Source: Planctomycetota bacterium
Lineage (GTDB): Bacteria > Planctomycetota > MHYJ01 > WSZJ01
Reading direction: 5' to 3'
DNA: 64,000 nucleotides
Assembly: GCA_038060895.1 (NCBI GenBank)
Contig: JBBTCT010000006.1
Location: forward strand, 7,403-71,402
This document shows positions 7,407 through 35,220 of the stretch, one piece after another. Positions within the stretch are counted from its first letter, which is position 1. The number at the start of each line of letters is the position of its first letter. Both the position numbers and the translations under genes were made by a program. The notes below the pieces were generated by a model, which saw nothing but the letters and a program-made list of their open reading frames with translations, was not told the origin of the DNA and did no database searches.

Positions 7407-7571
7407 CCCGCGTCATCGCTGCCGGGAACGGCGATGCGAACGCCCAGCTTCGGTTTATCCGGCGGGATACATCCTCGTGCGCCTGCGGATACGGACGAAA
7501 TACGAACCCGGCTGGAGCCGGCACGGTACGGAGATTGCGAAGCACCTCTTCGAATCCATTCGAGGTGCCCC

Positions 7572-8540: not shown

Positions 8541-8611
8541 CTGAACGTATCGCCGGGAAAGCGGCCGCGCGCTTCAATGAGAGCATGAACGTAGTGACCG
8601 CGCGGCCGCGC

Positions 8612-13323: not shown

Positions 13324-13800
13324 CTACTTCGCAGGAGTCTTCACCGCCCTCAGTCGTGAAACCGCAGTCATCTTCCCGGTCTGAAGCGCCCGCACCTGCG
13401 CGACGTTGACGACCGAGCCGGGGAGGTCCGTCATCGTCAGCGAAGCGCCCTTGATCGAAATCCGCGCCGGGTCGGCGACGCTCACGACCTGGCCGTTCGT
13501 GATGTCGATGGTCCCGGACAGCAGCCACTTCTCCGGCGTGCTCGCGCCCTCCAGCGTGACGCGCAGCGCGCGGACTTCTCCCGGCTGCGCGTCGGCCGCG
13601 TCCCACGAGATCTTCGCGGCGACGGCTTCAAGGGGGGTCGTGGAGGAAGCGGTGCCCTGAGTGACGGTGAGGTCGCACGCGCCGGGCTCGGCTTGCGGCG
13701 CGGAGAAGACGTACGTCGAGCCGGAGACGAAGACGGGCTCAGGGGTCTCGACGGTTTTCTGCGTGTGGTTTTTCAGCGAGAGCGTGTCGGGCAGATTCAA
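13324..13800 (-). pseudogene. Orphan duplicate of the C-terminal ~150 aa of the 16619-22168 protein
   Basis: TLSLKNHTQKTVETPEP...KMTAVSRLRA is almost identical to the end of the 1849-aa ORF. Confidence 0.8.
13357..13785. repeat. 429-bp direct repeat, copy A
   Basis: Matches 16643-17071 at offset 3286; 5 mismatches by eye, all in the leftmost ~80 bp. Confidence 0.95.
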
Positions 13801-19600: not shown

Positions 19601-22168
19601 CGTCGTGATCAGGACGTCCGTAGCGAGGCTCAGTCCGTGCTTCGCCGCAAACGACTGGCCTTTCGGATGCACGCGAAGCAGCGTCGACAGCAGATGCGAA
19701 TCATCGATCAACCCCATCGCGTGCGCGCACCGCGCGATCATCCACGGCGGCCCGCCGAACGCGAGCCGCGGCTCCACTTTGTCGCGGGAAAATTCCGAAG
19801 CGGTGTGGACGTGGACGTCGTAGTAGTGCCCTTCGGCGTCGAGGCGGGGAGGGTCTACGTCGAAGTCGACGCGGAGGACGGATTCCTGCCAGAGTTCGGT
19901 GGGTTCGTTCTCCCTATCCGATCTCCCCTTACGACCCTTGCTGGGGAGGCTGGTCGTGTCTGGGTGCTCAGAGAGGTCGTAGTAGCGGACTCCAACTCGG
20001 AAGAATTGGGAGCGTGTTCCCGAGTAGTCCCTCTTCCGGAAGAACTCCACATCCTCTCGAGGCACCATGATGATGGCGTGCCAGCCGTCGTGGTACTTCC
20101 AGCCAAGAAACTCGTTTCGGTTGAACGCGGTACCGCACCAGTCCTCGACTCGATAGGTCCCGTGGTCATGCCAGAGTGTCTTCGGGCCGATCAGGTTGTC
20201 AGTTCCCAGAGGATGGTGAGCAATGAAGAGGCCGTGTCCGACTGGAAAATCGACATCGAACTTGTCCGTTGGACTGTAGGTAGCTGCCTGATCTGGCGCC
20301 AGGAGATCGATCATGATGTCGGAAATCCACACGCCTGATGCTGGGTATCTACGTCCGTTATCTTGCCTTTCATATTCGTACTTCTCAGGGATTTGAGCGG
20401 TGTGTATCTCGGGTGTGAACAGCATGAATGGGATCGTCGATCTCGACGCTGCAATGCTTGCTGGGGCGTCGACGATCACCTCCTTAAGCCCCCACACGTC
20501 CGCATATTGCGGCGAATAGCTACTCCTCGACATGTCAAAGAGGATGTCTTCGTCGGCGTAAAGCTCACCACCCTCTTTTATCTCTAAGGAAACCACCTTG
20601 CCCGTCTTCCCCTCTGCCGGCTTTGCGAGCACCAAGTGAAGTTCAATTTCGCGAGATTCCCCGGCTTCTAACTTCATGGAGAGTTCGGCGTCCGGTTCCG
20701 AAATGGCCACGATTAGCTTCGTTTCGATGGGCTTGTTGTTCGGGTTATGGATTAGGGATCGAAGAACGGCCTTGTCGGAGTCGGATCGCATTCCCTCGAG
20801 CCGGTTCAGGAAACAGAGTGCCGTGCCTTCTCGCGGGTCTGGGGCGACCGTGTACTTGAGCCTGTCGTTCGCCGAATTTCCGCCGTCTGTTTGACTCAGG
20901 ACCACTTCGCACGAGTGACTTCCTTTCGCGAGGCCAAGCATGGGCACTCTCACCCGACAGGACTCGCCGGATTGCAGCACCGCGATGTCTACGCGGCTTC
21001 CGTTTGCCTGCGAGAGAATCCGGGACGTCAGTGAACCAGCACCGGGAGATCCACCCACGTTGCGAACCGTCACCGTTAGGTCGAATGCCTGTCCGGGCTT
21101 TGGATCCGGAGTGAGAAGGGCCCAGAGCACGGCGAGGTCAGCGGGTCGCGCAACCGCATCAGCGTATTGCGATGCGAGAATCTCCGCGTCAATGTGGCGC
21201 GCCGGGCAGTGGAGGAAGGCATTTCCATTGAAAATTGGAGACCCCGAAAGCGTCAGCACATCCCGCACGCGCTGCGCGCTCCAATCCCGATTGGCGGCCA
21301 TCAGTCGCGCGGTGAGGCCAGCCGCCTGTGCGCAGGCGACGCTGGTGCCTTGCAGCGAAGCGAACCCGCCGCCTGGCGCGATGACTTTCGCGAAGATTGG
21401 ACCCATGAGCTCGGTCTTGCCGGAGTGGTTCGCCAGTTCGGCGCGGTAGTAGAACTGGATCTCCTTGTCGCCGACCTTCTCCGTGCTGGCCTCGCGCTCG
21501 CCGGTGCAGGAAATCGCCCAGGGATGCGCGGCCGGGTAGAAGTCGTGCGTCGCGGGGCTGCCGACGCCCGCCGCGGCCAACACAAGGATTCCCTTTTCCT
21601 TCGCCTGCGCCATCCCGGTCTCGAGCGCATCTGATGTGAACGACCCACCCATCGGAACGCAGATCACGTGCGCCCCGCGCTTCACCGCTTCCTGAACGGC
21701 GAGCCCGACGACTGTGGGAAGAGCCGAGCTGTCCAGGGGAGTCGTGACCTTGATCGGAAGGATCTTCACGGGCTGCTTCGCGCAGACGCCGTCGAACTGG
21801 TCTTCTTCCGAATCGGCGCAGATAAGGCCGGCGACGGCGGTGCCGTGGCCCACCTGGTCTTTCGTGTCGCCGGGAACGGGGGCGAGATTGACTCCCTCGA
21901 GGACCTTTCCCTTGAGCGCCGGGTGTTCGGCATCGACGCCCGTGTCGATGACGGCCACGACGATGTCGCCCTTGAGAGGCTCGGCGCGGGGCGTCCACGC
22001 CGTGCTTGCGACAGGGGTGGGGTCCTTTGGCGGGTTGAGCGGCTTGACGGGATCCTTCGGCGGCGCCACCGGGGGCGGAGTTGGAGTAGGGGCAGGTTTG
22101 TCGCACGCCGCAAAAACCCAGGCCAGACCGCAGGCAGCGAGTGTGAGAACCAGGCGGGCATGCTTCAT
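16619..22168 (-). CDS. Large lipoprotein: S8 subtilase + CARDB/Ig-like + PHP-type metallohydrolase + C-terminal beta domains
   Basis: Lipobox FAAC; triad motifs VIDTG, HGT, GTSVA; ADLAV..VTVRNVG..NSAND CARDB pattern; PHP motifs DVHVHT, TTDHN, AAHP, GSDAHG. Confidence 0.85.
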   Translation of the reverse strand: MKHARLVLTLAACGLAWVFAACDKPAPTPTPPPVAPPKDPVKPLNPPKDPTPVASTAWTPRAEPLKGDIVVAVIDTGVDAEHPALKGKVLEGVNLAPVPGDTKDQVGHGTAVAGLICADSEEDQFDGVCAKQPVKILPIKVTTPLDSSALPTVVGLAVQEAVKRGAHVICVPMGGSFTSDALETGMAQAKEKGILVLAAAGVGSPATHDFYPAAHPWAISCTGEREASTEKVGDKEIQFYYRAELANHSGKTELMGPIFAKVIAPGGGFASLQGTSVACAQAAGLTARLMAANRDWSAQRVRDVLTLSGSPIFNGNAFLHCPARHIDAEILASQYADAVARPADLAVLWALLTPDPKPGQAFDLTVTVRNVGGSPGAGSLTSRILSQANGSRVDIAVLQSGESCRVRVPMLGLAKGSHSCEVVLSQTDGGNSANDRLKYTVAPDPREGTALCFLNRLEGMRSDSDKAVLRSLIHNPNNKPIETKLIVAISEPDAELSMKLEAGESREIELHLVLAKPAEGKTGKVVSLEIKEGGELYADEDILFDMSRSSYSPQYADVWGLKEVIVDAPASIAASRSTIPFMLFTPEIHTAQIPEKYEYERQDNGRRYPASGVWISDIMIDLLAPDQAATYSPTDKFDVDFPVGHGLFIAHHPLGTDNLIGPKTLWHDHGTYRVEDWCGTAFNRNEFLGWKYHDGWHAIIMVPREDVEFFRKRDYSGTRSQFFRVGVRYYDLSEHPDTTSLPSKGRKGRSDRENEPTELWQESVLRVDFDVDPPRLDAEGHYYDVHVHTASEFSRDKVEPRLAFGGPPWMIARCAHAMGLIDDSHLLSTLLRVHPKGQSFAAKHGLSLATDVLITTDHNCFLTDRDEPSAAPFGGEQFGGYEFGMLRQYFGRGANQELAMAKPFAAAGAMHALVYGAEPIEGPWHGGRGMRPMLAAVRDTLDAVTLTDDVLSYLDNVPETKFLKPPIDLVARMLHLLKHGVGATQAQRDGVRDGLQKLLQVVLEKASGKKIDLALIRNFCNLWGDLSATDLKKVLKEIDEALTAAEGRKEQNKWDVLNTEDLLIPRDNSYVAAHPFLGTKPLVEDKPNTPGDLAWQEGELMRAANMTWGFKGAERYPRRFPFRGVQLWNEPHFYSAKFSRPSDLAALNLWRAGVLQPELKWNEELSFGLHYYLKELIQPGLRWSFEPDIAREDGAKRLLLRKMYHFAGSDAHGSFNYTTGVGATMFTEPKFESVFALIGFGHGTESHTSHYGAARVYAQKASLDEVLEGRVVCTDGPVVWPELDTDVRFDSLTSIWHDSWTVATKANNADGEIGGGGKFDGERTALARRGCPDMVLRWRAAGDAGLSGRVKRLEAYRVTADQERVARAVRGMQVPFLEPAATFPNADGMGQQYALLGSAFGPTEPGVLMVGGYTSDSDAGLFDIKERRCLANPIWVSTVEIGASARPVVVDGKAYIPKGQFVATFRTDHSMYDMVAQPTVWAKQLNVNGDSVLAAYRLIPVWRGDTVGWWENEERQIGGKLVRVADCVMTAMNEENIPLGPDWYPVEGIDSFAVIWANPRDAFGNSLNSVANLLEVGVPAGTVTTGDGGGSGDGGGPPDEKPVETGGRNDLPPDTCSLNVRPGEEVQLPKGATCDGKKIPPGTWTVPELPDKGLSLVVSCGAQTLTLLLTSSAAPSPAFLDRTNPGFYGAVPTPGKGTPTLSLKNHTQKTVETPEPVFVSGSTYVFSAPQAEPGACDLTVTQGTASSTTPLEAVAAKISWDAADAQPGEVRALRVTLEGASTPEKWLLSGTIDITNGQVVSVADPARISIKGASLTVTDLPGSVVDVAQVRALQTGKMTAVSRLRALKR
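16643..17071. repeat. 429-bp direct repeat, copy B (3' end of the subtilase-PHP gene)
   Basis: Matches 13357-13785. Confidence 0.95.
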
Positions 22169-23745
22169 CGGCTCAAGCTCCTCTTGGAAAATGTCCCGTC
22201 CAGACGGGGAACGAATTCGGCGGGGCTCAGGTCGAGCATGGCTCCGGCAAGCGCTACCTGCGCTCCGCCGGACTTCACGCTGAATACGAACGGTGTTTCG
22301 GTCAGCTCCAACTCGTCGGGCAAATCGAAGTCGAGTTCGACGTCGACGAAGCCGCCGGCCGGCAAGGTCAGGCGGTCCTCTCCGTCCGACTCGCCGACTC
22401 CCGCGGCTACCTCGACCTCGCGGGCCTCGCCGCCGGTGTTTCGCAGGCGCGCCCCCACGGTCGCTTTCGTTGTTCCGTCGCGTCGCCCGATGAGGCGCAA
22501 CCGGTGAATCTCCACGCCGCTGTCATCCGGCGGAAAACAGACGACGCGCGTCGCGTTGTTCTCGGGATTGATGTCCCCTTCGGCGACAACACGCACGACC
22601 GCCACCGCGTCGAACGCAACCTCCGGAAGTCCGAATTCGACCATCGTCCGCTTCCCCGGCGCAAGATCCTTGATCTCCGCCGTCATCGCCTTGACCTCCC
22701 CCGGCGGCTGCAACTCCACGCGCCCCGACAGCGGAGCCCCGCCAAGATTTCCCACCTCCACCTGCACCCGGAGCGCGCCCTTCGACCCGAACCCTCGCTG
22801 CACGCCCCCGATGAACGCATCCCGTTCCGGCCCTTCCCGCTTCGCCGCCCAGTGCAGCACGCCTTCCCGGCTGCCTCTTCGCAGCCGCTCCGTCGCCTGG
22901 TCGTCGGGCGACTCGGGAAGACCGCCCGCGGTGACGAGGATTTCGCGGAGGCGGGCGGGGGAGAGGTCGGGCCTGGAAGCGCGGAGCACGGCGGCGAGGG
23001 CGGCGGCGCGGGCGCAGGCAACCGAGAGGCCGCGGACCGGGTCGGGGAGGCCCTTGATGGGGAGGGGAGTCGCTTCATCGGACAGCATCAGCTCGGTTTC
23101 GCCGGTGGCCGCGCAGCCCGCGACGGCGCACTCGCCGCGGGCGCGGCCGGCGGCGACTCCCTTGCCGTCGGGAAGCCGCAAAGGCGCTTCCCGCGACGCC
23201 GTGCAGGAGATGACCCAGGGGTGAGCGGCGGGTTGGGAATCGAAGCCGCCGAAGTCGTGGGAGACGTGGCCGGCGGGGGCGATGACGAGGGCGCCGGCCT
23301 TCTGGGCGCGGTCGAGGGCGGCGTCGAGTTCGGCGGCGGAGGCGGGGGAGGTGAAGGCGAGGCAGATGACGGAGGCTTTTTCGCGGAGGGCGGCGTCGAT
23401 GGCGGAGACCAGGTCGGCGGCCTTGGCGGCTTCGCCGTCGGAGACCTTGATGGGGAGGACGCGAACGGGGAAGTCGGCTGCCCAGCCGCGGATGTCGGGG
23501 TTTGCGGAGCGGCCGGCGATGAGACCGGCGAGCACCGTGCCGTGGAGGACGGGATCGTCGGCGGGTTTACCCGGGTGCAGGATGTTGATGGCGGGGAGGA
23601 GGGCGCCCGCGAGGTCGGGGTGCGCTGCGTCGATGCCGGTGTCGATGAGAGCGACCACGGTCGGCGCGGGCGGATCTTCCGCGGGCGCGGGCAGAACTGC
23701 CGCGAAGACGAAGATCGGGCCAGAAAGGTGATGCAGGAGCTTCAC
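22165..23745 (-). CDS. S8 subtilase-like protein with CARDB-like domains (start uncertain; ORF open to 23835)
   Basis: LIDTG, HGT, GLSVAC motifs; HPWVISCT and LPIKV shared with the downstream paralog; ATGA overlap with 22168. Confidence 0.8.
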   Translation of the reverse strand: MKLLHHLSGPIFVFAAVLPAPAEDPPAPTVVALIDTGIDAAHPDLAGALLPAINILHPGKPADDPVLHGTVLAGLIAGRSANPDIRGWAADFPVRVLPIKVSDGEAAKAADLVSAIDAALREKASVICLAFTSPASAAELDAALDRAQKAGALVIAPAGHVSHDFGGFDSQPAAHPWVISCTASREAPLRLPDGKGVAAGRARGECAVAGCAATGETELMLSDEATPLPIKGLPDPVRGLSVACARAAALAAVLRASRPDLSPARLREILVTAGGLPESPDDQATERLRRGSREGVLHWAAKREGPERDAFIGGVQRGFGSKGALRVQVEVGNLGGAPLSGRVELQPPGEVKAMTAEIKDLAPGKRTMVEFGLPEVAFDAVAVVRVVAEGDINPENNATRVVCFPPDDSGVEIHRLRLIGRRDGTTKATVGARLRNTGGEAREVEVAAGVGESDGEDRLTLPAGGFVDVELDFDLPDELELTETPFVFSVKSGGAQVALAGAMLDLSPAEFVPRLDGTFSKRSLSR

Positions 23746-23981
23746 GCTCGACGGCCCTGAATCGGCAGAAAGAGGAAAGGCCGGTTCCCTCGAGCCGGCA
23801 GTGCTGAACGTAGAAACACGGCCTGCGGACCGCAAGGCATTTTCGTGGAGGTTCGAATCGCGTCGAGGAGCGGAGGATTTGGCGCGAATTCGTGCCTTTA
23901 CTTATCCCTCAGTAAATAGAATCCCGCGTTGGTTGAATTCGAGGGCGCGTCCTCCGCCCGGCGTGTCGGGGACGACCGGCG

Positions 23982-26900
23982 ATGCTTCGACCCGCGATTC
24001 GCGCAGAGCACCTTTCGGCACAAGTTCATTTTGGCGGGCAGAGCGTGGAACGATCCCAGGAGCCGCTGCACCCTCAGCGTGACGGGAATTCCAAATCGCC
24101 CATCGGCCTTCAACCGATCGAACTCCTCTGGCTCAGCCAGGAACGCCACCTGGTTTCGCTGGCCGTGGCCCAGCATCAGGCTGCGGAACTCGGTGCGCGT
24201 GGCACGGTGAGCCCCTCGTACCTGCGCCATTGTTCCCGGTCTGCGCTTGGGGCTGCGATGCACGGCGGCCAGAGGCGACAGGGAATTGCCCGGCAGCGCA
24301 TCACCCGCTCAGCCGCGGAAGCCCTTGCCGAGAGTCCTGAAAAGACCGGCCTCCTGCAGGAGATAGTCCTCGACTGGATGGAGATCGTCCACCTCGCCCT
24401 GACGGAAATCGCGGACGGCCGGCTGTACCGCGAAGCAATGTCGGATGGCGAGGCGCTCCTGGCGGCAGCCCGGGGAGGTCCGAGTCAGCGTCTTGTTGCC
24501 CAGACGTTGTTCAGGCTCGCGCTTCTGAACCTCGATCCGTTTATCGTCGGCCGACCCTCCTCTAATTACGAAGCCAGCATCCGTCACTGGGAAGCGGGCT
24601 TCGCGGAGGAATTCGCGGAGGAGCTTAGAGGACTTCCGGAGGCAGACTGGAAGATGCCTTCTCCCGCCGAAGCGCTCGGGCGTGCCGTGAAGTACCTGCG
24701 GGAGATGATCGATCATGCGGAAGGCGATGCGATGGTCCGGGGGCTGAAAGCGCTGATTCAGGCGCTCGGGTGGCATAGCCTCGTGAGCCAGGCGGACCTC
24801 AACCAGGTTGAGATTGGAGACTTATGTCGTCGAGCACTTGCCAGGCTCGATCCGTCGAGACATCCCGTGCAGTGGCTCGAAGTTCTGGGGGCGTTGCCGA
24901 ACCACGGCGAGGTGAATCTTCTCGAGGAGGCCGACAGAGTTCTTCGTCGTTCACCCGACCAGCTCGTTCACGATGTGGGACCCGTCGTCGCAATAGACGC
25001 CATAAGGTCCGGGATCAGGCTGCTCATGGGCGGTCATGCGGCACGGGCTCTGGATCTGCTTCGATCCGCGAAGCCACTGGTTGAAAGACATGGAAGCGAT
25101 GCGGATCGATCCGCCTGGCTGGAAGACGAACTCACGATCGCGACACTCGCGATCGGACCTGACATGGTGACGCCGATCGCACCGTATGGCGTGCAAGTGG
25201 CGGAAGAAGAATTGCGGAGGCGCGCCGACGAAGGCAGTTGGGACCGCCGAACGCTATGCGCCGGCCTGCTGCGTCTGGCGCGGATATCCGGGCAGACTGA
25301 TGAAGAGCGAGCCGGGCTGGCGCTCCTGGAGGAGGCAGTCCGGTTGGCTCCTGCGTTTGTGGAGAGTCTCCTGCAGCCGATCAACCTGCTTCGGGCAATC
25401 CTGCATCGCAATGCGGCCGTCAATGAGTGGAAGGCCGGCAACTGGGCTGACGCCACCGCAGAATACGGCACGGCGCTTCGCGGGTACGTGGATCTTCGGC
25501 TCGTGGAGAAGAGCCACGACTGCCTGGTGTGGATCGAGGACCTTGCGCGCATTGCAGCACCGGAAGTTGCCGTCCAGGTCGTGAGGCAGGTCGCGCCGCT
25601 CGCGTTGAAACTCGAGGCCCTCATTGGCGAGCGAGCGATTCTCTCCCTTCAGCGGTTGTGCGAGCGCACGATCGCCGGATCGATGAAAGGCACCGCCGAC
25701 CTCGAGACGGTGAATTTCCTCTTTCAAGTTGCGAAGGGTCGACGCTTCGCACATGTCCTGTCCCGGGGAACCCGGTACAGGGTTAATGAAGACGCCGAAG
25801 CACAGGCAATGTTGAAGGCCATTCAGAATGCGCCGCAAGGCGTGAGCGTCGCCCCCGTGGACGAGGAACGGCTCCTGACGGTTCACGCCGATCCCAGGCC
25901 CCTGCACGGCGGAGGCACGGACGAACAACGACTTTCGAATCTGCAGCATGCGTTCGACAGCCGCGTGTCGGCCCTTTCATTTCGTGGCGACATCGGCGAA
26001 GAGACGGCGTACCTGTCGTGTGCGGAGATCCAGCGTTGCTTGGATGACCGAACGGTTCTTGTGAGCCTGTATTCGGGATCGTCGGATCCCGGAGAGACGA
26101 CCGTCTACGCGACGGCGTTCACGCGCGAAAGAGTGCGGCTTTACAGAACGGTGCAGGCGCCGGCTGCGGAAGAAAGCCGCCCAGGCGGCGCAGATCCAGG
26201 CGCCGGGAGAGGCGCCGTGGCACGGCTGGTTCACAGGGCGCGCGCGGCACTGTCGCTTCAGGTTCCCCGTGGAGAAATCGCAAGCGCGGCTGCGCGACTT
26301 GTCCTCGCCGATTGTTTCCGTGCGTTGTTCGGCAAACTTGGCAAAGACCTGCAAGGTCTCAGCAACGTCGGCAAGGACCACCTGTGCATCGTGCCTCACG
26401 GACCCTTACATTACATTCCCTTCCACCTGCTCGGGATCAAAGAGCCGCTCGCGAGCAAGTGGAAGGTGAGCTATTTGCCCAACCTCCACCTGCTCGCAGG
26501 ATTAAGGAACCGGAGCGCACTCGGGGCTAAGCGCCACGACTGGATTACTTCCATCGGCCTGGGGTTTCCCGGGACCAACCCGCATGATCTCCCCTGCATT
26601 CCGGGATCGGCCCGGGAAGCCAGTGAAGTGGCCGCGATCTTCGGCAAGGGTCCGCTTCTCGAAAAACACGCGACTCGAAAGGCAACTTTCGCCGCCCTCT
26701 CCGATTCGCGATTCGTACATGTCTCGACGCACGGCCGGCACAATTATGAAGCGCCTGCTCTTCATCTCGTTTACATGGCCGCGGATAGCGACTCCGATGG
26801 GCGGCTGTTCGCATTCGAAGTGCCGACCCTCGACCTTCGACGACTCGAAGTCCTGACGCTTAGCGCCTGCGAAACCGCGCTGGGCCGATTTGATCTCGGC

Positions 26901-27170
26901 GACAACCTTCGGGGCCTGCCGGCCAGCTTTCTGATTGCGGGCGTCCAGACTTTGGTTGGCACTTTGTGGCGACCGGACGTTGAGGTGTCGCGATACTTCT
27001 TCGTCGCTTTCTACAGTCGCCTCAGACGGGGCGCCTCGCGGCTCGAAGCGTTTTCCGCCGCGCAGCGCCGGACGCGCAAGCGATTTCCGCCGATGAGGGC
27101 ATGGGGACCCTTCTATATGATTGGCGACTGCGACACGGTTGCGGGGTTCGAAAACAAAAACGGGGGGTAG
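23982..27170 (+). CDS. CHAT-domain (caspase-like) protease with helical N-terminal region; true start probably downstream (~24258-24378)
   Basis: IVPHGPLHYIPF, HVSTHG (catalytic His), LSACET (catalytic Cys), AGVQTLVGTLW, WGPFYMIG. Confidence 0.88.
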   Translation: MLRPAIRAEHLSAQVHFGGQSVERSQEPLHPQRDGNSKSPIGLQPIELLWLSQERHLVSLAVAQHQAAELGARGTVSPSYLRHCSRSALGAAMHGGQRRQGIARQRITRSAAEALAESPEKTGLLQEIVLDWMEIVHLALTEIADGRLYREAMSDGEALLAAARGGPSQRLVAQTLFRLALLNLDPFIVGRPSSNYEASIRHWEAGFAEEFAEELRGLPEADWKMPSPAEALGRAVKYLREMIDHAEGDAMVRGLKALIQALGWHSLVSQADLNQVEIGDLCRRALARLDPSRHPVQWLEVLGALPNHGEVNLLEEADRVLRRSPDQLVHDVGPVVAIDAIRSGIRLLMGGHAARALDLLRSAKPLVERHGSDADRSAWLEDELTIATLAIGPDMVTPIAPYGVQVAEEELRRRADEGSWDRRTLCAGLLRLARISGQTDEERAGLALLEEAVRLAPAFVESLLQPINLLRAILHRNAAVNEWKAGNWADATAEYGTALRGYVDLRLVEKSHDCLVWIEDLARIAAPEVAVQVVRQVAPLALKLEALIGERAILSLQRLCERTIAGSMKGTADLETVNFLFQVAKGRRFAHVLSRGTRYRVNEDAEAQAMLKAIQNAPQGVSVAPVDEERLLTVHADPRPLHGGGTDEQRLSNLQHAFDSRVSALSFRGDIGEETAYLSCAEIQRCLDDRTVLVSLYSGSSDPGETTVYATAFTRERVRLYRTVQAPAAEESRPGGADPGAGRGAVARLVHRARAALSLQVPRGEIASAAARLVLADCFRALFGKLGKDLQGLSNVGKDHLCIVPHGPLHYIPFHLLGIKEPLASKWKVSYLPNLHLLAGLRNRSALGAKRHDWITSIGLGFPGTNPHDLPCIPGSAREASEVAAIFGKGPLLEKHATRKATFAALSDSRFVHVSTHGRHNYEAPALHLVYMAADSDSDGRLFAFEVPTLDLRRLEVLTLSACETALGRFDLGDNLRGLPASFLIAGVQTLVGTLWRPDVEVSRYFFVAFYSRLRRGASRLEAFSAAQRRTRKRFPPMRAWGPFYMIGDCDTVAGFENKNGG

Positions 27171-27172
27171 CC

Positions 27173-27352
27173 ATGGCAGGAATCGATGTGGGCGGGATGG
27201 TGAAGATCGTCAAGGTAGGGGCCGCCGAACAGCACCTCCTGAACCGCGTCGGAAGGCTGCTGGTGATCGCGGACTCCGTCAACTGCCTGCTGGTCTTCCA
27301 GGACGGCACCACGGCCCAGGTGAAGATCGACCAGCTTCAATCGGTGCGCTGA
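27173..27352 (+). CDS. 59-aa beta-rich hypothetical protein (SH3/KOW-like)
   Basis: G-run SD; starts 2 nt after the CHAT stop and ends 10 nt before the caspase start; GC3-rich codons; VGGMVKIV...VGRLLVI...LLVFQDGTTAQVKIDQL. Confidence 0.75.
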   Translation: MAGIDVGGMVKIVKVGAAEQHLLNRVGRLLVIADSVNCLLVFQDGTTAQVKIDQLQSVR

Positions 27353-27362
27353 CTCCCGAGCC

Positions 27363-29126
27363 ATGAACAAGACACGCGCTGCCGTGCTCATCGGCGTCAG
27401 GAAAAGCGGGTCGCTCCAAACCCTCCATACGGCGGCCGAGAACGCTCGTGCGATGGCCGCCTGGGCCGGGTCGCAGCAATTCAAGCACGTTCACGTCATC
27501 ACCGACGAAGCGGGGAGGGTCGATGTCGCGCGGATCAAGAAAACGATCACTGAGCTCGTGGATTTGAGAACAATTGAGCAGTTAATCGTCTACTTCTCCG
27601 GACACGGCGTGAATCGAAACCGGAGTGAATACTGGCTCTTGACCGGGGCGCCCAGGGATTCCCAGGAAGCGGTGAATGTTGAGGGAAGCGTCCATCTTGC
27701 GCGAAGGGTGGGAATTCCTCACGTCGTGTTTATCTCGGACGCGTGCCGAACCGCTCCCGAAGGCATCCAGGCGGATTCCGTCACAGGTAGCGACATTTTC
27801 CCGAATGAGGACATCGGAGGTTCCAACCACGCCGTCGATCAGTTCTTCGCTACGCAGCTTGGACGGCCCGCCTACGAGTTCAAGAACACCGCCGAGGCGG
27901 TCGCGGCTTACGCTCCTTATACGGACGAATTGATCAAGGCTCTCAGCGGAGATTACGAGCCGCCCCTCGAACATCACAAGGAGGGCCGGAGGGCCTTCGG
28001 ACTGGTGCGGCCGCATCCGCTCAAACGCCACCTGCATTCCGTCGTCACCAGGAAGGTGCATGCCGTGGCGCGACGGGCGCAAGCGCCCGACGCCCTGATT
28101 ACGTCCGACGAATCTGCCTGGCTGGCGAAAATCCTGTTCGAACACCCGGGACACCCGACCAAAGGGGACTCGCGCAAACCGCGCCGCCATCCATTCGTCG
28201 AATCGCCTCAGTCGAGGAAGTTCCCCGATCTGGGAAGTTTGTCGCGCGCTTTCCTCACCGCGGCATTGCGCGCAGCGGCGCCCGCCTTCTTCCCGCAGGT
28301 GCCGACGGAACTAGTCACTGCCGCCGTGGAGCTGGGACGATCGGTGGCCCGAATGTCCAAGTCGTTCGGCAGCGCAGAATTCCGGACCGGCTGCGGATTC
28401 AAGGTGCGTGGGAACGGATTTGCGGACGCAACGAGTCTGGGTGGCGCTCGAGTCGAGCGATCGTCCGAGAACCTGGTTCAGATCCTCGACGTGGCGTGGC
28501 CCGCTTCAAACGTGCTGATCACATTCGGTGACGGCACCGGAACGATGCTGCCCGCGATTCCCGAATTCATCGGCGCTCTCACGTTTGAAGGAAATGAACT
28601 GGTCGATGTCGCATACGAACCGTCGGCCGGATCTTCGCGGTGGAAAGCGTTTCAGAAACGGCGAGATGAACTCCGGCGCCTGAGGGCGACGATCGCAGAG
28701 TCGGCACGACTGGGGGTGTTCAGGGTCGAAGAACCTGGAGCTCGGAAACTCATCAAGAAGCTGCGTTATGGCGAGAGCATCGATCCCGGCCTGGCTCTAT
28801 ACGCCGCATATGCGTGCCGCGACCTTCCCGGCCCTGATCGTATTCTGGACTTTGAAGTGACCCTCCTGGGAGATCTGGGGTTGAGCTTTTTCGATTTGTG
28901 GCTGATTGGCGGCGAACTCGGAAACATGGACCTCGCCAACTCCTCGGTCTTTCCGTTCTTTCCGATGCTCTCCCAAGGGTGGGCGCTTCTCGACGCGCTG
29001 CGAGTTAAGCTTCCTGAGTCTCTGTCGACTCTTCAAGGTCACCTCCGGCAGTCTCTCTGGACGCTTTTTGACCCCGCGGGAGTTTCGGCAATCCGGAAAG
29101 CAATTCCAGAACTGGAGCGGCGATGA
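27363..29126 (+). CDS. Caspase-family (peptidase C14) protein with uncharacterised C-terminal domain
   Basis: AAVLIGV start, VYFSGHG (His), ISDACR (Cys), FFATQLGRPAYE. Confidence 0.88.
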   Translation: MNKTRAAVLIGVRKSGSLQTLHTAAENARAMAAWAGSQQFKHVHVITDEAGRVDVARIKKTITELVDLRTIEQLIVYFSGHGVNRNRSEYWLLTGAPRDSQEAVNVEGSVHLARRVGIPHVVFISDACRTAPEGIQADSVTGSDIFPNEDIGGSNHAVDQFFATQLGRPAYEFKNTAEAVAAYAPYTDELIKALSGDYEPPLEHHKEGRRAFGLVRPHPLKRHLHSVVTRKVHAVARRAQAPDALITSDESAWLAKILFEHPGHPTKGDSRKPRRHPFVESPQSRKFPDLGSLSRAFLTAALRAAAPAFFPQVPTELVTAAVELGRSVARMSKSFGSAEFRTGCGFKVRGNGFADATSLGGARVERSSENLVQILDVAWPASNVLITFGDGTGTMLPAIPEFIGALTFEGNELVDVAYEPSAGSSRWKAFQKRRDELRRLRATIAESARLGVFRVEEPGARKLIKKLRYGESIDPGLALYAAYACRDLPGPDRILDFEVTLLGDLGLSFFDLWLIGGELGNMDLANSSVFPFFPMLSQGWALLDALRVKLPESLSTLQGHLRQSLWTLFDPAGVSAIRKAIPELERR

Positions 29127-30028
29127 ACCGTCGACTCGTGTTGATTCATGGGCGTTCGCAGGAGCACAAAAGCGCCGAGAAGCTCAAGAGGTCCTGGGTT
29201 GCGGCACTCAAACGAGGCTTGGCGAAATCAAACCTCGAGCTGCCCATCCCTGAGCGCGAGGTCCGCTTCCCCTACTATGGCGACGCCTTGCATGACCTCG
29301 CTTCGGGAAAGGAAGATGGGGTCGCGAAGGTCATCACTAAGGGCGCCACGCGCGACCACGAGTTCAGCGGTTTCGCCAAGGAAATTCTCCTCGAAGTCTG
29401 CGCCAAGGCCGGCATCACCGATGCGGACATCGAGGCAGCAATGACGGGGGAGAAAGTCATCGAGATGGGCATACTCAACTGGAAGTGGGTCCGTGCAATC
29501 TTGAGGACGATCGATCGACTAGTTCCGTTGGCTAGCGCCGCAAGCATCGCCCTGTTCACGAACGACGTTTACAAGTACCTGAGGAATCCCGGAATCCTGA
29601 ATCAGATCGAAATGCGCGTGCGCGCCGCATTCGAGCCAGGAATCCCCACAATTGTCGTCGCGCACTCGCTCGGCTCCGTGGTCGCTTACAACCTCTTGCG
29701 GACGGAAGGAACCTCGCTAGCCTGGCGAATTCCAGTGTTCGTCACTGTCGGCGCGCCGCTGGCAGTTTCCCGAATCAAGGCGCTGCTTGCACCGAATCAT
29801 CATCCTGAGTGCATCGACAAGTGGTTCAACGCGTTGGATGCCCAGGATGTTGTCGCGCTTCATCCTCTTACGAAGAGGCACTTCCCGATTGATCCTGAAA
29901 TCGAGAACAAGACAGACGTTCAGAATCCGTCGCCGAATCACCACGGGATCGAGGGCTACCTGGCCGACCGCGACGTTGCGAAGAAGATCCATGACGCGCT
30001 GATCGCCTCAGCGGTTCCCCGCGAATAG
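29123..30028 (+). CDS. Alpha/beta hydrolase (lipase-like)
   Basis: LVLIHGR, PYYGD, VAHSLGS nucleophile, VTVGAPL, DVVAL, HHGIEGYL; ATGA overlap with the caspase gene. Confidence 0.88.
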   Translation: MNRRLVLIHGRSQEHKSAEKLKRSWVAALKRGLAKSNLELPIPEREVRFPYYGDALHDLASGKEDGVAKVITKGATRDHEFSGFAKEILLEVCAKAGITDADIEAAMTGEKVIEMGILNWKWVRAILRTIDRLVPLASAASIALFTNDVYKYLRNPGILNQIEMRVRAAFEPGIPTIVVAHSLGSVVAYNLLRTEGTSLAWRIPVFVTVGAPLAVSRIKALLAPNHHPECIDKWFNALDAQDVVALHPLTKRHFPIDPEIENKTDVQNPSPNHHGIEGYLADRDVAKKIHDALIASAVPRE

Positions 30029-30136
30029 CTGCTCCCAAGCGGCGTCCGGTGAATGCCCAGCCTTTCGAAATGATTTCATCCCGTTCTGGCGCTTCGCGCT
30101 TCGGCTGGGTTGCGCGCGCCGCTTATCATCTCGCGC

Positions 30137-31801
30137 GTGCAGTCAGAACTTGCGTACTTGTTCCGCCACGCCCTCCTCCGCGACGCCGCGTACCAGATGC
30201 AGCTTCCCGGCGATCGCGCGCGGCTGCATGCTCAGGCTGTGGAGGCCATCGAAGCGATGGCCGGGGGGCGAGGACCGGCGGGGCGGCGGCTTCGGGCGGG
30301 TGGGGACGACGCGGTGCGGCCGCATCCGGCGGACGTTTTCGCGGCCGAGATTGCGGAGCATGCGGGGCTGGCGCTGGCGACGGAGGGGGCCCGTCTGCCG
30401 GAATCCGCGGCGCGATTCCTCGAATCGGCCCGAAGGCACTACCTGCGTCGCGCCGCGGAGTCGCTGGAGCGCGACTACCGATTCTCTGCGGCCGGCGCGG
30501 CCTGGGTGGCCTATGCGGGACTCACGGGCGGACGGGAGCGGGCGGAGGCGTTTCGACGGGGCGGACAGTCCGCGCATCGCGCCGATCAGCTCGGGAGCGC
30601 CGTGCCCCTGCTCCGCCGGGCCATTGCGCTTCATCGCGCCGCCGGGGACGCGCGCGCCGAAGGATTCGCGCGCGATAATCTCGCGACGGTCTTCCGCGAC
30701 GGCGACCGCAGGCAGGACGCCGAGCGGCTCTATCGGCAGGCGCTGTCGCTTCAGAGACTCTCCGGCAGCCGCCGCCTGCAGGGGCTGACTCTCTCGAACT
30801 ACGCCGGACTGCTCTACATGACGGGCCGCGCCGCCCGGGCCTCGCGCCTCTGCACCCGGGCGCTTACCCTGCTGCGCCGGGCCGGCGACCGCCACGGGGT
30901 GCGACGAACTCTGGGCAACCAGGCGGTCCTGTTAGAGGCAGCCGGCCGTGTCGCGGAGGCCGAGCGCACGTTCCGGCAGGCACGCCGGCTCCACCGCCTC
31001 GCCGGCGACCGGCGCGCCGAGGGCCTCGTGCTGGGCAACCTGGCGATGCTCTGGCAGCAGACCGGCCGGTTCCGGCAGGCCAAGCGCGCGCACGAAGCGG
31101 CGATTGCCCTGCATCGCGAGGCCGGCAACCGTCGCGCCGAGGGGGTGGCGCTCGGCAACCTCGCGGGCCTCCACAACCAGGTCGGACGGTACGAGCAGGC
31201 CGAGCGGATGTTCGGGGAGGCGCTGGCGGTCCATCGCGAAGTCGACAACCGCCGCGGGGAGGGCAGTCTTCTCGGGGACCTCGCGGGCGTTTATCGGAAC
31301 ACCGGACGGATCGAGCTGGCCGGACGCACGCTTCAGGATGCCCTCGCCGTCCACCGCGCCTGCGGCAATCGCCGCGGCGAAGCGCTGGTCCTCGGGCACG
31401 TCGCGAAGTTTCTCGAAGAGACGGGGCGGCACCTGGAAGCGGAGCGGAGTTTCGGGCAGGCGCTGGCGCTTCTGCGCAAGTTCGGCGACCCGCGCTCGCT
31501 CGGCATCGCTCTGGGGGATCTGGCCCTCCTCTACGAAAAAACGAGCCGCCGCGCCCGCGCCGCCCGCACGAACGCGCAAGCCCTCGCGTTCGACCGCCGC
31601 GTGGGCAACCGGACCTTTGAAGGCGTCCACCTCTGCCTGGCCGCGCGCCTCCTCGTCGCTTCCGGGCAGCTCCAGCGGGCGCGCCGGACCTGGCGCGAAG
31701 CCTCCCGCCTTCTGCGGGGGGCCGGAGACACCGCCGAGCTGGCCGTTCAGTCCGCCGCCATGCGGGACGCCTGCGGCCGCGCAGGACAGAGCCGCGTATG
31801 A
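30137..31801 (+). CDS. Stand-alone TPR protein, FRHALLRDAAY family, copy 4
   Basis: GTG 30137 with TATCAT 7 nt upstream; VQSELAYLFRHALLRDAAYQMQLPGDRARLH; TPR repeats. Confidence 0.88.
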   Translation: MQSELAYLFRHALLRDAAYQMQLPGDRARLHAQAVEAIEAMAGGRGPAGRRLRAGGDDAVRPHPADVFAAEIAEHAGLALATEGARLPESAARFLESARRHYLRRAAESLERDYRFSAAGAAWVAYAGLTGGRERAEAFRRGGQSAHRADQLGSAVPLLRRAIALHRAAGDARAEGFARDNLATVFRDGDRRQDAERLYRQALSLQRLSGSRRLQGLTLSNYAGLLYMTGRAARASRLCTRALTLLRRAGDRHGVRRTLGNQAVLLEAAGRVAEAERTFRQARRLHRLAGDRRAEGLVLGNLAMLWQQTGRFRQAKRAHEAAIALHREAGNRRAEGVALGNLAGLHNQVGRYEQAERMFGEALAVHREVDNRRGEGSLLGDLAGVYRNTGRIELAGRTLQDALAVHRACGNRRGEALVLGHVAKFLEETGRHLEAERSFGQALALLRKFGDPRSLGIALGDLALLYEKTSRRARAARTNAQALAFDRRVGNRTFEGVHLCLAARLLVASGQLQRARRTWREASRLLRGAGDTAELAVQSAAMRDACGRAGQSRV

Positions 31802-33315
31802 ATTCCGCAGAAACAGCCTACCTGTTCCGACATGCGTTGCTCCGCGACGCCGCCTACCAGCTCCAGCTCCCCGGCGACCGCTCGCGGCTGCACGGACTGT
31901 CTCTGGAGATCATGGAGACGATCTGCGGCGGGGCTGCGCCGGAGCCGCCCACCCTGGTATCAGGCGAGGCCGTCCCGCGGCATGCGACGGATCCGTTCGC
32001 GGAGGAGCTCGCCGGGCACGCTCGGCAGGCCGGCGAAACCGCGCGCTCCGGAGCGCTGAAGACTTATGCGCGCCGGGCCGCGGAGTTCGCGGATAAGTCT
32101 TTCCAGGTCGGGAAGATGCAGAGCCTCTGGCTGGATCTCGCGGAACTTCTCGAAGGCTCCGAAAAGGCGGAAGCCCTGCGCCAGAGTTCCCTCGCCGCCC
32201 AGACCGCGGGAAACGAGCCGCTCGCGCTGTCGCTCTGCGAGCAGGCGCTGGCCCTGCATCGCGAAGCGGGCAACCGTCGATTCGAAGGGGTCACGCTTCT
32301 CGGACTGGCGCACATCGGCCGCGATGGCGACAGGGGCGACCAGTTCGGAGATTCGTGCGAACGGGCGCTGGCGCTGCTTCGCGACTCCGGCGACCGGCGA
32401 TTCGAAGCGATCGCGCTCGGTCAGCTGGCGGCCTGGCACGGGGCCAAGGGACGAATCGGCGAATCCGAAAGCCTGCTGGAGAGATCCCTCGCGATTCACC
32501 GGGAACTGGGCAACCACTTCAACGAGGGGGTCATGCTGGGCACCCTGGGAAGCCTTCTCTTTTCCACCGGGCGCTTCGGGGAAGCCGAGCGCGCCTTTGA
32601 ATCGGCCCTGGTTCGTTGCAGGGAGGCGGGCGACGTGAGGGCCGAGAGCGTCGTGCTGGGCAACTTCGCCGGCGTCTTCCTCCAGACCGGGCGGGAAAAA
32701 CAGGCGGAGCTCACGATGGAGCGCGCGCTCGCGATTCACCGCTCCTGCGGAAACCTCCGTTCGGAAGGAATCGTGCTGGGAAACCGGTCGCGAGTCCACC
32801 GGCTGGCAGGCCGCTGGGACCAGGCCGAGTCCGATCTCGAGCAGGCGCTTCGGCTCCACCGCGAAGTCGGCAACAGGCGCTCCGAGGCCTACGCGCTCCT
32901 GAACCTGGCAAGCCTGTGCGGGGAACGGGACCAGCTGGAACGCGCCCTCCAGCTCTGCGCGGAAGCGCTCTCAATATTCCGCGAACGCGGCGAGCTGCCG
33001 ATGGTGGGCGGAGCCGTGGGAGTCCAGGCCGTTCTATGCCACCAGCGCGGCGACCTCGAAGAAGCCGGACGGCTCTTCCTGCAGGCCCTCGGCATCCTCA
33101 AGCAGGTCCGGGACGCCCACTCAGAAGCGGCGCTTCAGTGCGACTACGCCGTCTATCTCCTGGACTGCGGACGGGTGGAGGAAGCACGAAAGGCGTGGGC
33201 GGAAGGAAGTTCGCTGTTTCGGAAACTCGGCGACATGCGCGAACTCGAGCGGAAGACCCTCTGCGTTCGCGAAGCCTGCGGGAAGAACGGTATCCCGTCA
33301 ATCGAGTCAGTTTGA
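31798..33315 (+). CDS. Stand-alone TPR protein, FRHALLRDAAY family, copy 5
   Basis: ATGA overlap with copy 4; MNSAETAYLFRHALLRDAAY; TPR repeats. Confidence 0.9.
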   Translation: MNSAETAYLFRHALLRDAAYQLQLPGDRSRLHGLSLEIMETICGGAAPEPPTLVSGEAVPRHATDPFAEELAGHARQAGETARSGALKTYARRAAEFADKSFQVGKMQSLWLDLAELLEGSEKAEALRQSSLAAQTAGNEPLALSLCEQALALHREAGNRRFEGVTLLGLAHIGRDGDRGDQFGDSCERALALLRDSGDRRFEAIALGQLAAWHGAKGRIGESESLLERSLAIHRELGNHFNEGVMLGTLGSLLFSTGRFGEAERAFESALVRCREAGDVRAESVVLGNFAGVFLQTGREKQAELTMERALAIHRSCGNLRSEGIVLGNRSRVHRLAGRWDQAESDLEQALRLHREVGNRRSEAYALLNLASLCGERDQLERALQLCAEALSIFRERGELPMVGGAVGVQAVLCHQRGDLEEAGRLFLQALGILKQVRDAHSEAALQCDYAVYLLDCGRVEEARKAWAEGSSLFRKLGDMRELERKTLCVREACGKNGIPSIESV

Positions 33316-33336
33316 ATCAGCAGGCCGTGTCAGGAT

Positions 33337-33579
33337 TCACTTCTTCGCCTTCAAAAACCACCCCTTCGCCCCCTCGTCCGTCGTGAAGAACTTCAGCAGC
33401 ATGTCGGCGACTTTCTTGCGGCCGGAGTCGGACGGGTGCGTGCCGTCCTCGCCCTTGTACTTGTCTTCCGCCGTCATCTCGGTCAGCGGCTTGAGCCCGA
33501 GGTGGTCCTTCGGCGTCTGCTGGGCGAAAACCGACGAAGAGAGCAGGAGGGCGTAAACGGGGAACAAGGCGCGGCGCAT
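33337..33579 (-). pseudogene. 80-aa remnant of an exported SGNH-like protein with an in-frame internal deletion
   Basis: AAGGAG SD and signal peptide; GLKPLTEM...YKGEDG joined directly to a DGTHPS...RKKVADMLLKFF C-terminal SGNH-type DxxHP block. Confidence 0.6.
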
Positions 33580-33637
33580 CGCTGAACTCTCCTTGAGGGG
33601 CCGCCGCGAGTCTACGATAGCGGCCTCGTGACTGCTC

Positions 33638-33665
33638 CCTTCGACTCGCTTCGCTCGCTCAGGGC
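33638..33665. repeat. REP-like palindrome CCCTTCGACT...CGCTCAGGG
   Basis: Same ends as the element at 41437-41490. Confidence 0.65.
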
Positions 33666-33675
33666 AGAGCCCCGT

Positions 33676-35220
33676 ATGACATCCGCTGAAACGGTTTACC
33701 TTTTTCGGCACGCGCTTCTGCGCGACGCCGCCTATCAGCTGCAGCTCCCGCGCGATCGCGCGCGGCTGCACGGGCTGGCGCTGGAGGTGATGGAACAGAT
33801 CTGCGGTGGCCGGCCACCGGTTCCGCCGCCACTTGAAGACGCCGGTCGCGAACGTTTCGCGCCGCACCCGTCGGACGCGTTCGCGGAAGCGCTCGCCGAG
33901 CATGCCCAAAGGGCGCCGGAGGAAATGGATTTCCGCGGCGTTTCCGCGGCGTCTCTCCGGAAGCTCTACCTGCGCCGCGCCGCGGAGCACGCCGCGAAGT
34001 TCTTCCAGGGCGAAGCGTCCGAGCGCCTGTGGCGGCAGCACGCGGCGCTGGCGTCCGGCGTCGAGAAAGGTGAGTCGTTTCTCCGCGCCGCCGATGTGGC
34101 GCGCGAGCGCGGGGACCGGAAGCGAGCCCAGGCCGACATCCAGGAGGCGATGACCCTCGCTCCGGGGGCCAGCCAGAGGTTCGTGGCGCACATGCTCGGC
34201 GCGCAGGCCGCCCTCTACCTCGAAGTCGGCTGGTTTACGAAAGCGGAGTCGTTCTACACGCGCTCTTTGAAGATCCAGCGCGCGGCCGGCGATCGCAGGG
34301 AGGAAGGCGCCACTCTCGCGAATCTCGGCGTGGTCGCGCGCCAGCAGGGGCGGGCGCAGGAGGCGGAGCGCCTTCTGGGGGAGGCTCTTTCCATCCAGCG
34401 CGAAATCGGAAACCGGGAGGCAGAGTGCACCCTGCTGGGAAACCTCGGGGCGTACTACGCGCAGATGGGCCGCACCGAAGAGGCCGCGCAGGCGATCGAT
34501 TCGGCCCTGGCAAGCGCCCGAAGCCGCGGCGACCGCCGCGCCGAGGGAGTCTCGCTCGGCCTCCTGGCGGCGCTTCACGGCCAGCGCGGCAACCTCAAGG
34601 AAGCCGCATCCGCCTGCCGGCAGGCCATCGCGTTTGACATCGAAGTCGGCTCCCGGCCCGGCCAGGGGATCGCGCTTCAGAACCTCGCCACGGTCGAATA
34701 CCTCGAAGGAAATCTCGAGCGCGCGAAGGCCACCTACCTGCAGGCCCTGGAAATCCACCGCGAAGTCGGCAATCGCGCAAGCGAGGGAACGACGCTGGGC
34801 AATCTCTCCCAGCTCCTGAAATCCCTGGGGCTGCTGGACGACGCGGTCCGATGCTGCGAAGAAGCGCTCGCCATTTCCCGTCAGGTCGGGGACCGGCGTC
34901 ATGAGGGAATCTCCCTCGGAAACCTGGCGGGCCTCCACCAGAAGTCCGGGAAACTCGACGACGCCGAGCGGCTCTTCCGGATGGCCATCGAACTGCATCG
35001 CAAGAACAGCAATCGCGGCTTCGAGGGCAGCCACCTCTGCGACCTCGCGTGCCTCTTCGTCGCCCGGGGACGTGAGGCGGAAGCGCGGGAGGCGTGGATC
35101 CAGGGCCGGCTACTTCTGCGCCAGGCGGGAACCCCGGTGGAAAGGGAGCGCACCCAGGCCGCCATGCGCGCCGGGTGCGGCGAAGCCGGCGTTTCGCCGC
35201 TCGAGGAGCCCCCGGAGTGA
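33676..35220 (+). CDS. Stand-alone TPR protein, FRHALLRDAAY family, copy 6
   Basis: MTSAETVYLFRHALLRDAAYQLQLPRDRARLH; TPR repeats. Confidence 0.9.
   Translation: MTSAETVYLFRHALLRDAAYQLQLPRDRARLHGLALEVMEQICGGRPPVPPPLEDAGRERFAPHPSDAFAEALAEHAQRAPEEMDFRGVSAASLRKLYLRRAAEHAAKFFQGEASERLWRQHAALASGVEKGESFLRAADVARERGDRKRAQADIQEAMTLAPGASQRFVAHMLGAQAALYLEVGWFTKAESFYTRSLKIQRAAGDRREEGATLANLGVVARQQGRAQEAERLLGEALSIQREIGNREAECTLLGNLGAYYAQMGRTEEAAQAIDSALASARSRGDRRAEGVSLGLLAALHGQRGNLKEAASACRQAIAFDIEVGSRPGQGIALQNLATVEYLEGNLERAKATYLQALEIHREVGNRASEGTTLGNLSQLLKSLGLLDDAVRCCEEALAISRQVGDRRHEGISLGNLAGLHQKSGKLDDAERLFRMAIELHRKNSNRGFEGSHLCDLACLFVARGREAEAREAWIQGRLLLRQAGTPVERERTQAAMRAGCGEAGVSPLEEPPE

Follow-up and report, generated by a model that had tools for sequence, protein, structure and literature searches.

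Genes at the locus

We examined a 64,000-nucleotide stretch of DNA from a Planctomycetota bacterium (GenBank assembly GCA_038060895.1, contig JBBTCT010000006.1, positions 7,403 to 71,402 of the forward strand), referred to here as the window. Four genes between positions 23982 and 30028 encode a CHAT protease, a protein of 59 amino acids (aa), a caspase-like protease and an alpha/beta-hydrolase, and an earlier note made from the sequence alone had proposed that together they form a proteolytic defence or cell-death cascade. The caspase and hydrolase very probably constitute a protease-zymogen module already described in Lysobacter, and the CHAT protease is a candidate second input to it. The features of the unit are as follows.

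23982..27170, plus strand: open reading frame (ORF) of 1062 aa for a helical-repeat and CHAT (clan CD) protease, a candidate sensor-protease (ORF listing and Pfam)
26322..27128, plus strand: CHAT domain, residues 781-1049 (Pfam, E 1e-40), with His917 at 26730-26732 and Cys963 at 26868-26870
27162..27167, plus strand: G-run within the last CHAT codons, the likely ribosome-binding site of the 59-aa gene
27173..27352, plus strand: gene for the 59-aa orphan protein (read from the sequence)
27363..29126, plus strand: LcCaspase-type protease of 587 aa, with Peptidase_C14 at residues 5-205 (Pfam, E 8e-8)
Within the caspase gene, plus strand: His81 (27603-27605), Cys128 (27744-27746), Asp126, Asp159 and Glu172 (27876-27878)
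28143..28232, plus strand: low-confidence inter-domain linker of the caspase in the structure model, residues 261-290, with Lys267-Gly268 as a candidate processing site
29123..30028, plus strand: LcHydrolase-type alpha/beta-hydrolase zymogen of 301 aa (by homology)
Within the hydrolase gene, plus strand: Ser182 (29666-29668), Asp239/Asp242 and His274 (29942-29944)
29339..29344, plus strand: predicted cleavage site 1, Lys73-Gly74, in register with Arg73-Gly of LcHydrolase
29465..29470, plus strand: predicted cleavage site 2, Met115-Gly116, in register with Arg117-Gly of LcHydrolase

Re-measurement confirmed gaps of 2, 10 and -4 nt between the co-oriented genes, all of which lie on the plus strand in open frames. 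The catalytic residues that the earlier note had picked out are likewise sound, with His917 and Cys963 invariant in 101 aligned members of the CHAT family, His81 and Cys128 in 53 aligned caspases, and Ser182, both candidate acids of the triad (Asp239 or Asp242) and His274 in 119 of 119 hydrolase homologs. A hydropathy scan, which is not a dedicated signal-peptide predictor, finds no N-terminal hydrophobic stretch in the three large proteins, in keeping with the lack of signal peptides noted before. GC content at third codon positions (GC3) is 0.69-0.72 in the CHAT, caspase and hydrolase genes versus 0.79-0.87 in six other genes of the window, and this lower value in three of the four genes is consistent with horizontal acquisition. 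A search upstream of the unit gave no promoter-like site, and no tRNA, Rfam match or terminal repeat marks the boundaries of an island. Scans of the unit against PADLOC and NCBIfam leave traces at the sub-family level only: in PADLOC, a check that the earlier note had named, the caspase receives a domain-level 'caspase' match and nothing more specific (E 5e-5), and the CHAT protein, the 59-aa protein and the hydrolase have no match at E 0.1. Single-sequence PDB searches with the three large proteins returned no matches.

Relationship of the caspase and hydrolase to a Lysobacter pair

LcCaspase and LcHydrolase (accessions WP_153018843.1 and WP_060410396.1; 594 and 296 aa) are reported as a protease that cuts a hydrolase zymogen at two putative Arg-Gly sites, the N-terminal and C-terminal pieces of which kill E. 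coli; the substrate of the hydrolase and the trigger of the module are given in that preprint as unknown (bioRxiv 10.1101/2025.11.14.688446). The window caspase and hydrolase are of similar length (587 and 301 aa). By-eye alignment with the sequences of its Table S1 finds 35 of the 52 hydrolase residues 5-56 identical to LcHydrolase, both cleavage motifs in register, and the catalytic Cys128 matching Cys129 of LcCaspase, the protease comparison resting on the first 400 residues of LcCaspase. Cutting at both sites would yield computed hydrolase fragments of 8.3, 4.5 and 20.6 kDa, versus 8.1, 4.7 and 19.8 kDa reported for LcHydrolase.

The loci compared below (numbered L) comprise, from GTDB genomes, the 80 best among 532 confirmed matches to the hydrolase and 12 plasmid loci among 80 plasmid matches listed, and column and site counts use a set of 119 hydrolase homologs. 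A family caspase, whole or partial, lies directly upstream of the hydrolase in 70 of the 80 loci. There are 918 hydrolase relatives in the protein collection, the nearest of which comes from a Planctomycetota genome. One locus (L023) carries a pair that looks near-identical to the Lysobacter proteins, and its hydrolase is 48% identical to that of the window. Judging from this homology, we consider it very probable that the window caspase and hydrolase are the same protease-zymogen module. The idea of a protease-activated death effector, put forward in the earlier note, is supported by this homology. Its statement that the arrangement matches no named system has to be divided, because the caspase-hydrolase half is the module of that preprint, and the four-gene order recurs in none of the 80 loci; gene order is conserved for the pair and not for the unit as a whole. 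As regards its description of the hydrolase as a membrane-damaging lipase, the Pfam match is sub-threshold (Abhydrolase_6, E 0.009) and the PDB profile matches to lipases are non-significant (best E 0.075).

The window differs from the Lysobacter pair in having Lys at site 1 and Met at site 2, where LcHydrolase has Arg at both, and in the co-oriented CHAT protease and 59-aa genes that lie upstream. Among the sampled loci, L018:8162-10885 holds the caspase, with a shortened C-terminal domain, and the hydrolase within one 907-aa ORF, and broken copies of the module are found in L034, L051 and L056.

Cleavage sites and caspase specificity

Across the 119 homologs, the residue preceding the cut (P1) at site 1 is Arg in 96 and Lys in 19, and Lys73 of the window fits this basic-Gly pattern. 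At site 2, P1 is Arg or Lys in 112 and Met in 1, and Met115 of the window does not conform to Arg-Gly. Both P1 residues are basic in 111 homologs, both are non-basic in 3 and the pair is mixed in 5; the corresponding counts in 75 readable loci are 68, 4 and 3, with L071, L073-75 and L078 left out as their sites are unreadable or absent. The two positions co-vary (p 0.0005), as expected where one protease normally cuts both sites. Met at site 2 recurs in the homolog P0120 (Lys/Met) and in L042, L055, L067 and L087.

The caspase model (mean predicted local distance difference test score, pLDDT, 88.8) consists of a paracaspase/metacaspase-fold domain at residues 1-259, a linker, and a C-terminal beta-sandwich and helical domain at residues 340-587. 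Residues 1-259 dominate the fold searches and match MALT1 and metacaspases (Z 20.2, root-mean-square deviation 3.3, 212 aligned). The C-terminal domain may resemble Pfam Y4kD_C clusters (template modelling score 0.72, feature score 0.82), which we offer as a lead only.

Two caspase residues follow the state of the sites. All 56 caspases that adjoin basic-site hydrolases, one of them with site 2 alone readable, have both Asp159 and Glu172, as do 3 of 3 plasmid basic-site loci, making 59 of 59 in total for Glu172; L041, L051 and the second caspase of L072 were left out of this count, and L082-85 and L092 were too divergent for site placement. In contrast, Glu172 is replaced in 4 of the 5 loci with two non-basic sites (L026, L042, L087 and L089), two of the non-basic-site loci having been gathered after the idea was formed. 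At the level of sequence, this co-variation of P1 with Glu172 independently supports the putative cleavage sites of the Lysobacter preprint, and it points to a specificity residue. In the caspase model Glu172 lies on a loop after strand 157-162. The S1 residue of MALT1 is reported to be Glu500 (PMC4357240), and Glu172 may be its equivalent by topology, which is how the match has to be drawn because the searches gave no residue-level alignment of the caspase with MALT1 (which came 8th in one of them, E 0.059, and was absent from a second). The window caspase keeps Ser79, Asp126, Asp159 and Glu172, and with this basic-type set it is expected to be efficient at site 1 and poor at site 2.

The CHAT protein and its family

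The N-terminal 780 residues of the CHAT protein define a family of 451 clusters in a profile search (E 0.001). Among the 149 family members listed, all 121 that are full-length carry a CHAT domain, and protein lengths are ~1000-1130 aa. A word-based search with the N-terminal region recovered only the protein itself, and tblastn against plasmids found nothing. Weak profile matches to TPR and Csx29 are present, and the family has no named model in Pfam, NCBIfam or PADLOC beyond the CHAT domain.

The earlier note had judged the first ~100 codons non-coding and the gene possibly 5'-truncated; this does not hold, as a profile of 121 full-length relatives, from which the window protein was left out, matches that protein with high posterior from residue 33 onward, and only codons 1-32 lack profile support. 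The probable start is a GTG at 24045, which agrees with the 1041-aa length of the database copy of the protein. A ~70-aa N-terminal extension found in some relatives was considered as a lost 5' end and rejected, as 38 of 121 full-length relatives also do without it and the upstream frames hold no trace of it.

Genomic context is known for three members of this family: the window, L016 and L081. In L016 (Thiodiazotropha) a CHAT protein with 28% identity over 1031 aa flanks a caspase-hydrolase pair. This ortholog is itself flanked by 267-bp inverted repeats (L016:4500-4766 and 7903-8169) that are 97.8% identical and have short terminal inverted repeats, and flipping the segment between them could give the CHAT-caspase-hydrolase order of the window. 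In L081 (L081:6016-10594) an ORF of 236 aa comes 7 nt after the CHAT gene; it matches nothing in Pfam, PADLOC or PHROG and is a candidate for a different effector.

CHAT genes near the module

Counting every kind, 12 CHAT genes are present in 11 of the 80 loci. Ten of them start no more than 1 kb from the module, a region that holds 14% of flank bases (binomial p ~1e-7, uncorrected for relatedness or detection bias, and with L026 placed by hand), and the catalytic His and Cys are kept in 11 of the 12. These CHAT neighbours are mostly unrelated in architecture, no alignment exceeding 450 residues between any of them except one Massilia pair, which points to repeated recruitment. In L030:10001-12958, L033:10001-13173 and the plasmid locus L088:6998-9003, a CHAT gene lies downstream of the hydrolase and no caspase was found, making these loci candidates for a CHAT-only version of the module. 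The role that the earlier note gave to the CHAT protease thus finds indirect support, in this clustering and in the three loci where no protease other than CHAT was found next to the hydrolase.

The loci with one basic and one non-basic site bear on the same question. L067 (Arg/Met) and L077 (Tyr/Lys, its site 1 placed by MAFFT in one alignment and gapped in another) keep Glu172 and have an intact caspase and an intact CHAT neighbour; in L034 (Ala/Lys) the caspase is broken and CHAT is absent. With the window counted, three loci have mixed sites and an intact caspase, and each of them has an intact CHAT gene.

Other conflict-type neighbours were seen in L003, L037, L007, L031, L035, L042, L062 and L010, among them CHAT-FGE with bAvd-like, TCAD7-CHAT, trypsin with TPR, PDC-S41 helicase and protease-HEAT genes. 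Trypsin and endonuclease genes lie near the module in L031 and L035, and S8 and MBL genes in L007.

The 59-aa gene

The 59-aa ORF looks coding: its GC content by codon position is 0.69/0.32/0.86, and its ATG is preceded at 5 nt by a G-run. The position of the G-run inside the last CHAT codons suggests translational coupling. Its GC3 of 0.86 is host-like, compared with 0.69-0.72 in its three neighbours, and hints at a separate origin. In the protein collection the protein finds only itself; the best phage match has E 0.5, and PHROG yields a single hit at E 0.04. A YorP-like feature score of 0.89 was obtained, and as we take YorP to be SH3-like, the protein is possibly a small SH3/KOW-like barrel, again a lead only. 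A single-sequence fold prediction of one long helix was disregarded, as its predicted template modelling score is 0.38 and the five models disagree.

Comparison with known systems

A pairing of caspase and alpha/beta-hydrolase was predicted earlier in MoxR-vWA (VMAP) conflict systems, where the caspase-superfamily domain is described as always adjoining an alpha/beta-hydrolase gene (PMC7159879). The window caspase differs in being a stand-alone two-domain protein; no MoxR, vWA or VMAP domain is present among the window proteins scanned, and the unit is flanked by S8 peptidases and TPR proteins. In Haliangium ochraceum, SAVED-CHAT is reported to activate a second protease, PCaspase (bioRxiv 10.1101/2023.06.23.546230), and there too the second, caspase-like protease has CHAT upstream of it, a small gene, PCi, separating the two; by analogy only, the 59-aa protein might have a PCi-like inhibitor role. 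The window unit differs in lacking SAVED, cyclase, CRISPR and sigma factor and in having a helical-repeat N-terminus and a dedicated zymogen effector. No SAVED domain was found in the CHAT protein, for which Pfam gives CHAT only and PADLOC nothing, its N-terminus belonging to the helical family, and no type III CRISPR or CBASS cyclase was found among the ~30 long window ORFs scanned.

The helical-repeat and CHAT architecture is shared with Csx29, the TPR-CHAT protease of Craspase, which is reported to recognise Met at P1 and to cut after it (bioRxiv 10.1101/2022.08.17.504292), a precedent for Met recognition. The window protein scores 19.9 bits against a Csx29 cut-off of 300, however, and no Cas7-11, Csx30 or Cas family was found in the scanned window proteins. 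Borvo is reported to use a CHAT protease in phage defence (bioRxiv 10.1101/2024.10.26.620412); the window CHAT has no PADLOC match to BovA or BovB, and its L016 ortholog has a weak CHAT-domain match to BovA (E 4e-6). We found no description in the literature of CHAT coupling to the caspase-hydrolase module, the neighbourhood figure and PDF supplement of the Lysobacter preprint aside: 'CHAT' occurs 0 times in its main text and two supplements, and the available portions of PMC8195603 and of bioRxiv 10.1101/2024.10.26.620412 do not mention such coupling.

Proposed mechanism and alternatives

The explanation that we favour is that the unit is a horizontally acquired module of abortive-infection type, in which two clan CD proteases would license one latent toxin. 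The helical repeats of the CHAT protein would detect a signal of infection and activate its protease domain. The caspase would cut the zymogen after the basic Lys73 at site 1, a step known in the Lysobacter orthologs, and the CHAT protease would supply the missing licence, most likely by cutting Met115-Gly116 or else by processing the caspase linker. As is known for the orthologs, the ~4.5 kDa middle piece would be lost and the 8.3 and 20.6 kDa fragments would form an active Ser-Asp-His hydrolase, which would kill or arrest the cell. The 59-aa protein would be a locus-specific accessory, perhaps a protease brake. From the sequence comparisons, we put functional wiring of the CHAT protease into the module at a little under an even chance, of which about half goes to a second cut made directly by CHAT and half to CHAT activating the caspase in series. 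In the former case the unit would be a proteolytic AND gate, the caspase cutting Lys-Gly and the sensor-CHAT cutting Met-Gly, with death only when both are on; taken by itself, this form is rather unlikely.

A number of observations weigh against this explanation. The 59-aa protein has no homolog in the 80 loci, plasmids, Pfam, NCBIfam or PADLOC, and no phage-defence assay of the pair was seen in the available text of the Lysobacter preprint. With the window excluded, CHAT genes accompany 2 of 3 mixed-site loci and 8 of 68 basic/basic loci (Fisher p 0.05), and L067 and L077 fall in one clade; the p of 0.01 obtained with the window includes a locus that was itself selected for having CHAT. Further points would fit independent neighbours, namely a caspase-hydrolase pair that is self-sufficient, its caspase accepting Met at site 2, and a CHAT sensor-protease that is separate from it and acts on a target of its own (the 59-aa protein, perhaps), the two having come to lie side by side in a small defence island. 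The examined flanks of 69 of the 80 loci have no CHAT gene, LcCaspase is active as purified and cuts in vitro without a trigger or second protease according to the preprint, and in L081, a Streptomyces plasmid, the same CHAT family (E 2e-175) occurs without the module, with AbiE-type toxin-antitoxin genes and the different ORF alongside. In L055 the sites are Met/Met, Glu172 is kept, residue 79 is Ile and CHAT is absent, which suggests that cleavage after Met may be within the reach of the caspase family. Protease-effector genes of other kinds are likewise grouped near the module (L031, L035 and L007). Against independence, CHAT genes almost always immediately adjoin the module and in three loci replace the caspase, the spacing in the window is tight and the low GC3 shared, and the window caspase keeps its full basic-type residue set; we consider independence improbable, although it is a serious alternative.

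Serial activation, the other form of our favoured explanation, would have the CHAT protease cut only the caspase, in its linker or C-terminal domain, and the caspase make both hydrolase cuts, with the 59-aa protein as a PCi-like inhibitor. The SAVED-CHAT/PCaspase precedent, the disordered linker of the model and an enrichment of Arg/Lys-Gly motifs in 53 caspase linkers (65 versus 42.8 +/- 5.8 in shuffled sequences, 0 of 2000) speak for it, as does L016, where the CHAT gene is divergently oriented and the hydrolase is Arg/Arg, so that no second specificity is needed, a point that also counts against a second cut by CHAT. However, the linker motifs match the caspase's own preference and are accounted for by self-processing, a comparable excess is present in the C-terminal domain (137 versus 111 +/- 9), Met115 is left unexplained, and the activity of purified LcCaspase argues against a need for prior processing. 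On its own we regard serial activation as unlikely. It is less probable still that the module is decaying, Met115 and other substitutions having disabled the hydrolase and left a relic. The window hydrolase differs from its family in 7 of the 97 conserved columns, the second-highest count among 120 (the median is 2), two of these changes being found in 0 of 119 homologs, which is what relaxed selection would give; its branch is longer than that of its sister (0.52 versus 0.22) in a quick tree whose group statistics were uninformative as set up; the Met115 codon is one base from Lys or Arg codons; and broken copies do exist in three loci. Yet all reading frames are open and catalytic residues intact, the caspase and CHAT protein deviate at fewer conserved columns than their family medians (1 versus 2 and 4 versus 6), and Met at site 2 recurs in five relatives.

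Other genes of the window

Genes for two S8 peptidases of 1849 and 556 aa stand in tandem at window 16619-23835 and are divergent from the unit, the larger being lipoprotein-like and host-like in GC3. Its 3' end is duplicated as a 448-bp direct repeat (13338-13785 and 16624-17071, 97.5% identical), and the low-GC stretch between the repeats contains a 468-aa membrane-type alpha/beta-hydrolase-like ORF (13805-15211) with a GHSHGG motif. At least five paralogous TPR genes sharing a short starting motif (8604-8775, 10012-13214 and 30110-35220) form two clusters, one on each side of the S8/CHAT region, and a RhuM-family gene lies at 6519-7412 (E 4e-113).

Implications

The stand-alone caspase-hydrolase module is widespread, and the window locus names a concrete candidate trigger family for it, the helical-CHAT proteins, together with a residue-level prediction of which protease cuts which hydrolase site. 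If the cuts are split between two proteases, a single bacterial death effector would be governed by two-input logic. Were the AND gate to hold, the module family would run in single-protease, CHAT-only and two-protease versions, and the version could be read from two P1 residues and one S1 glutamate.

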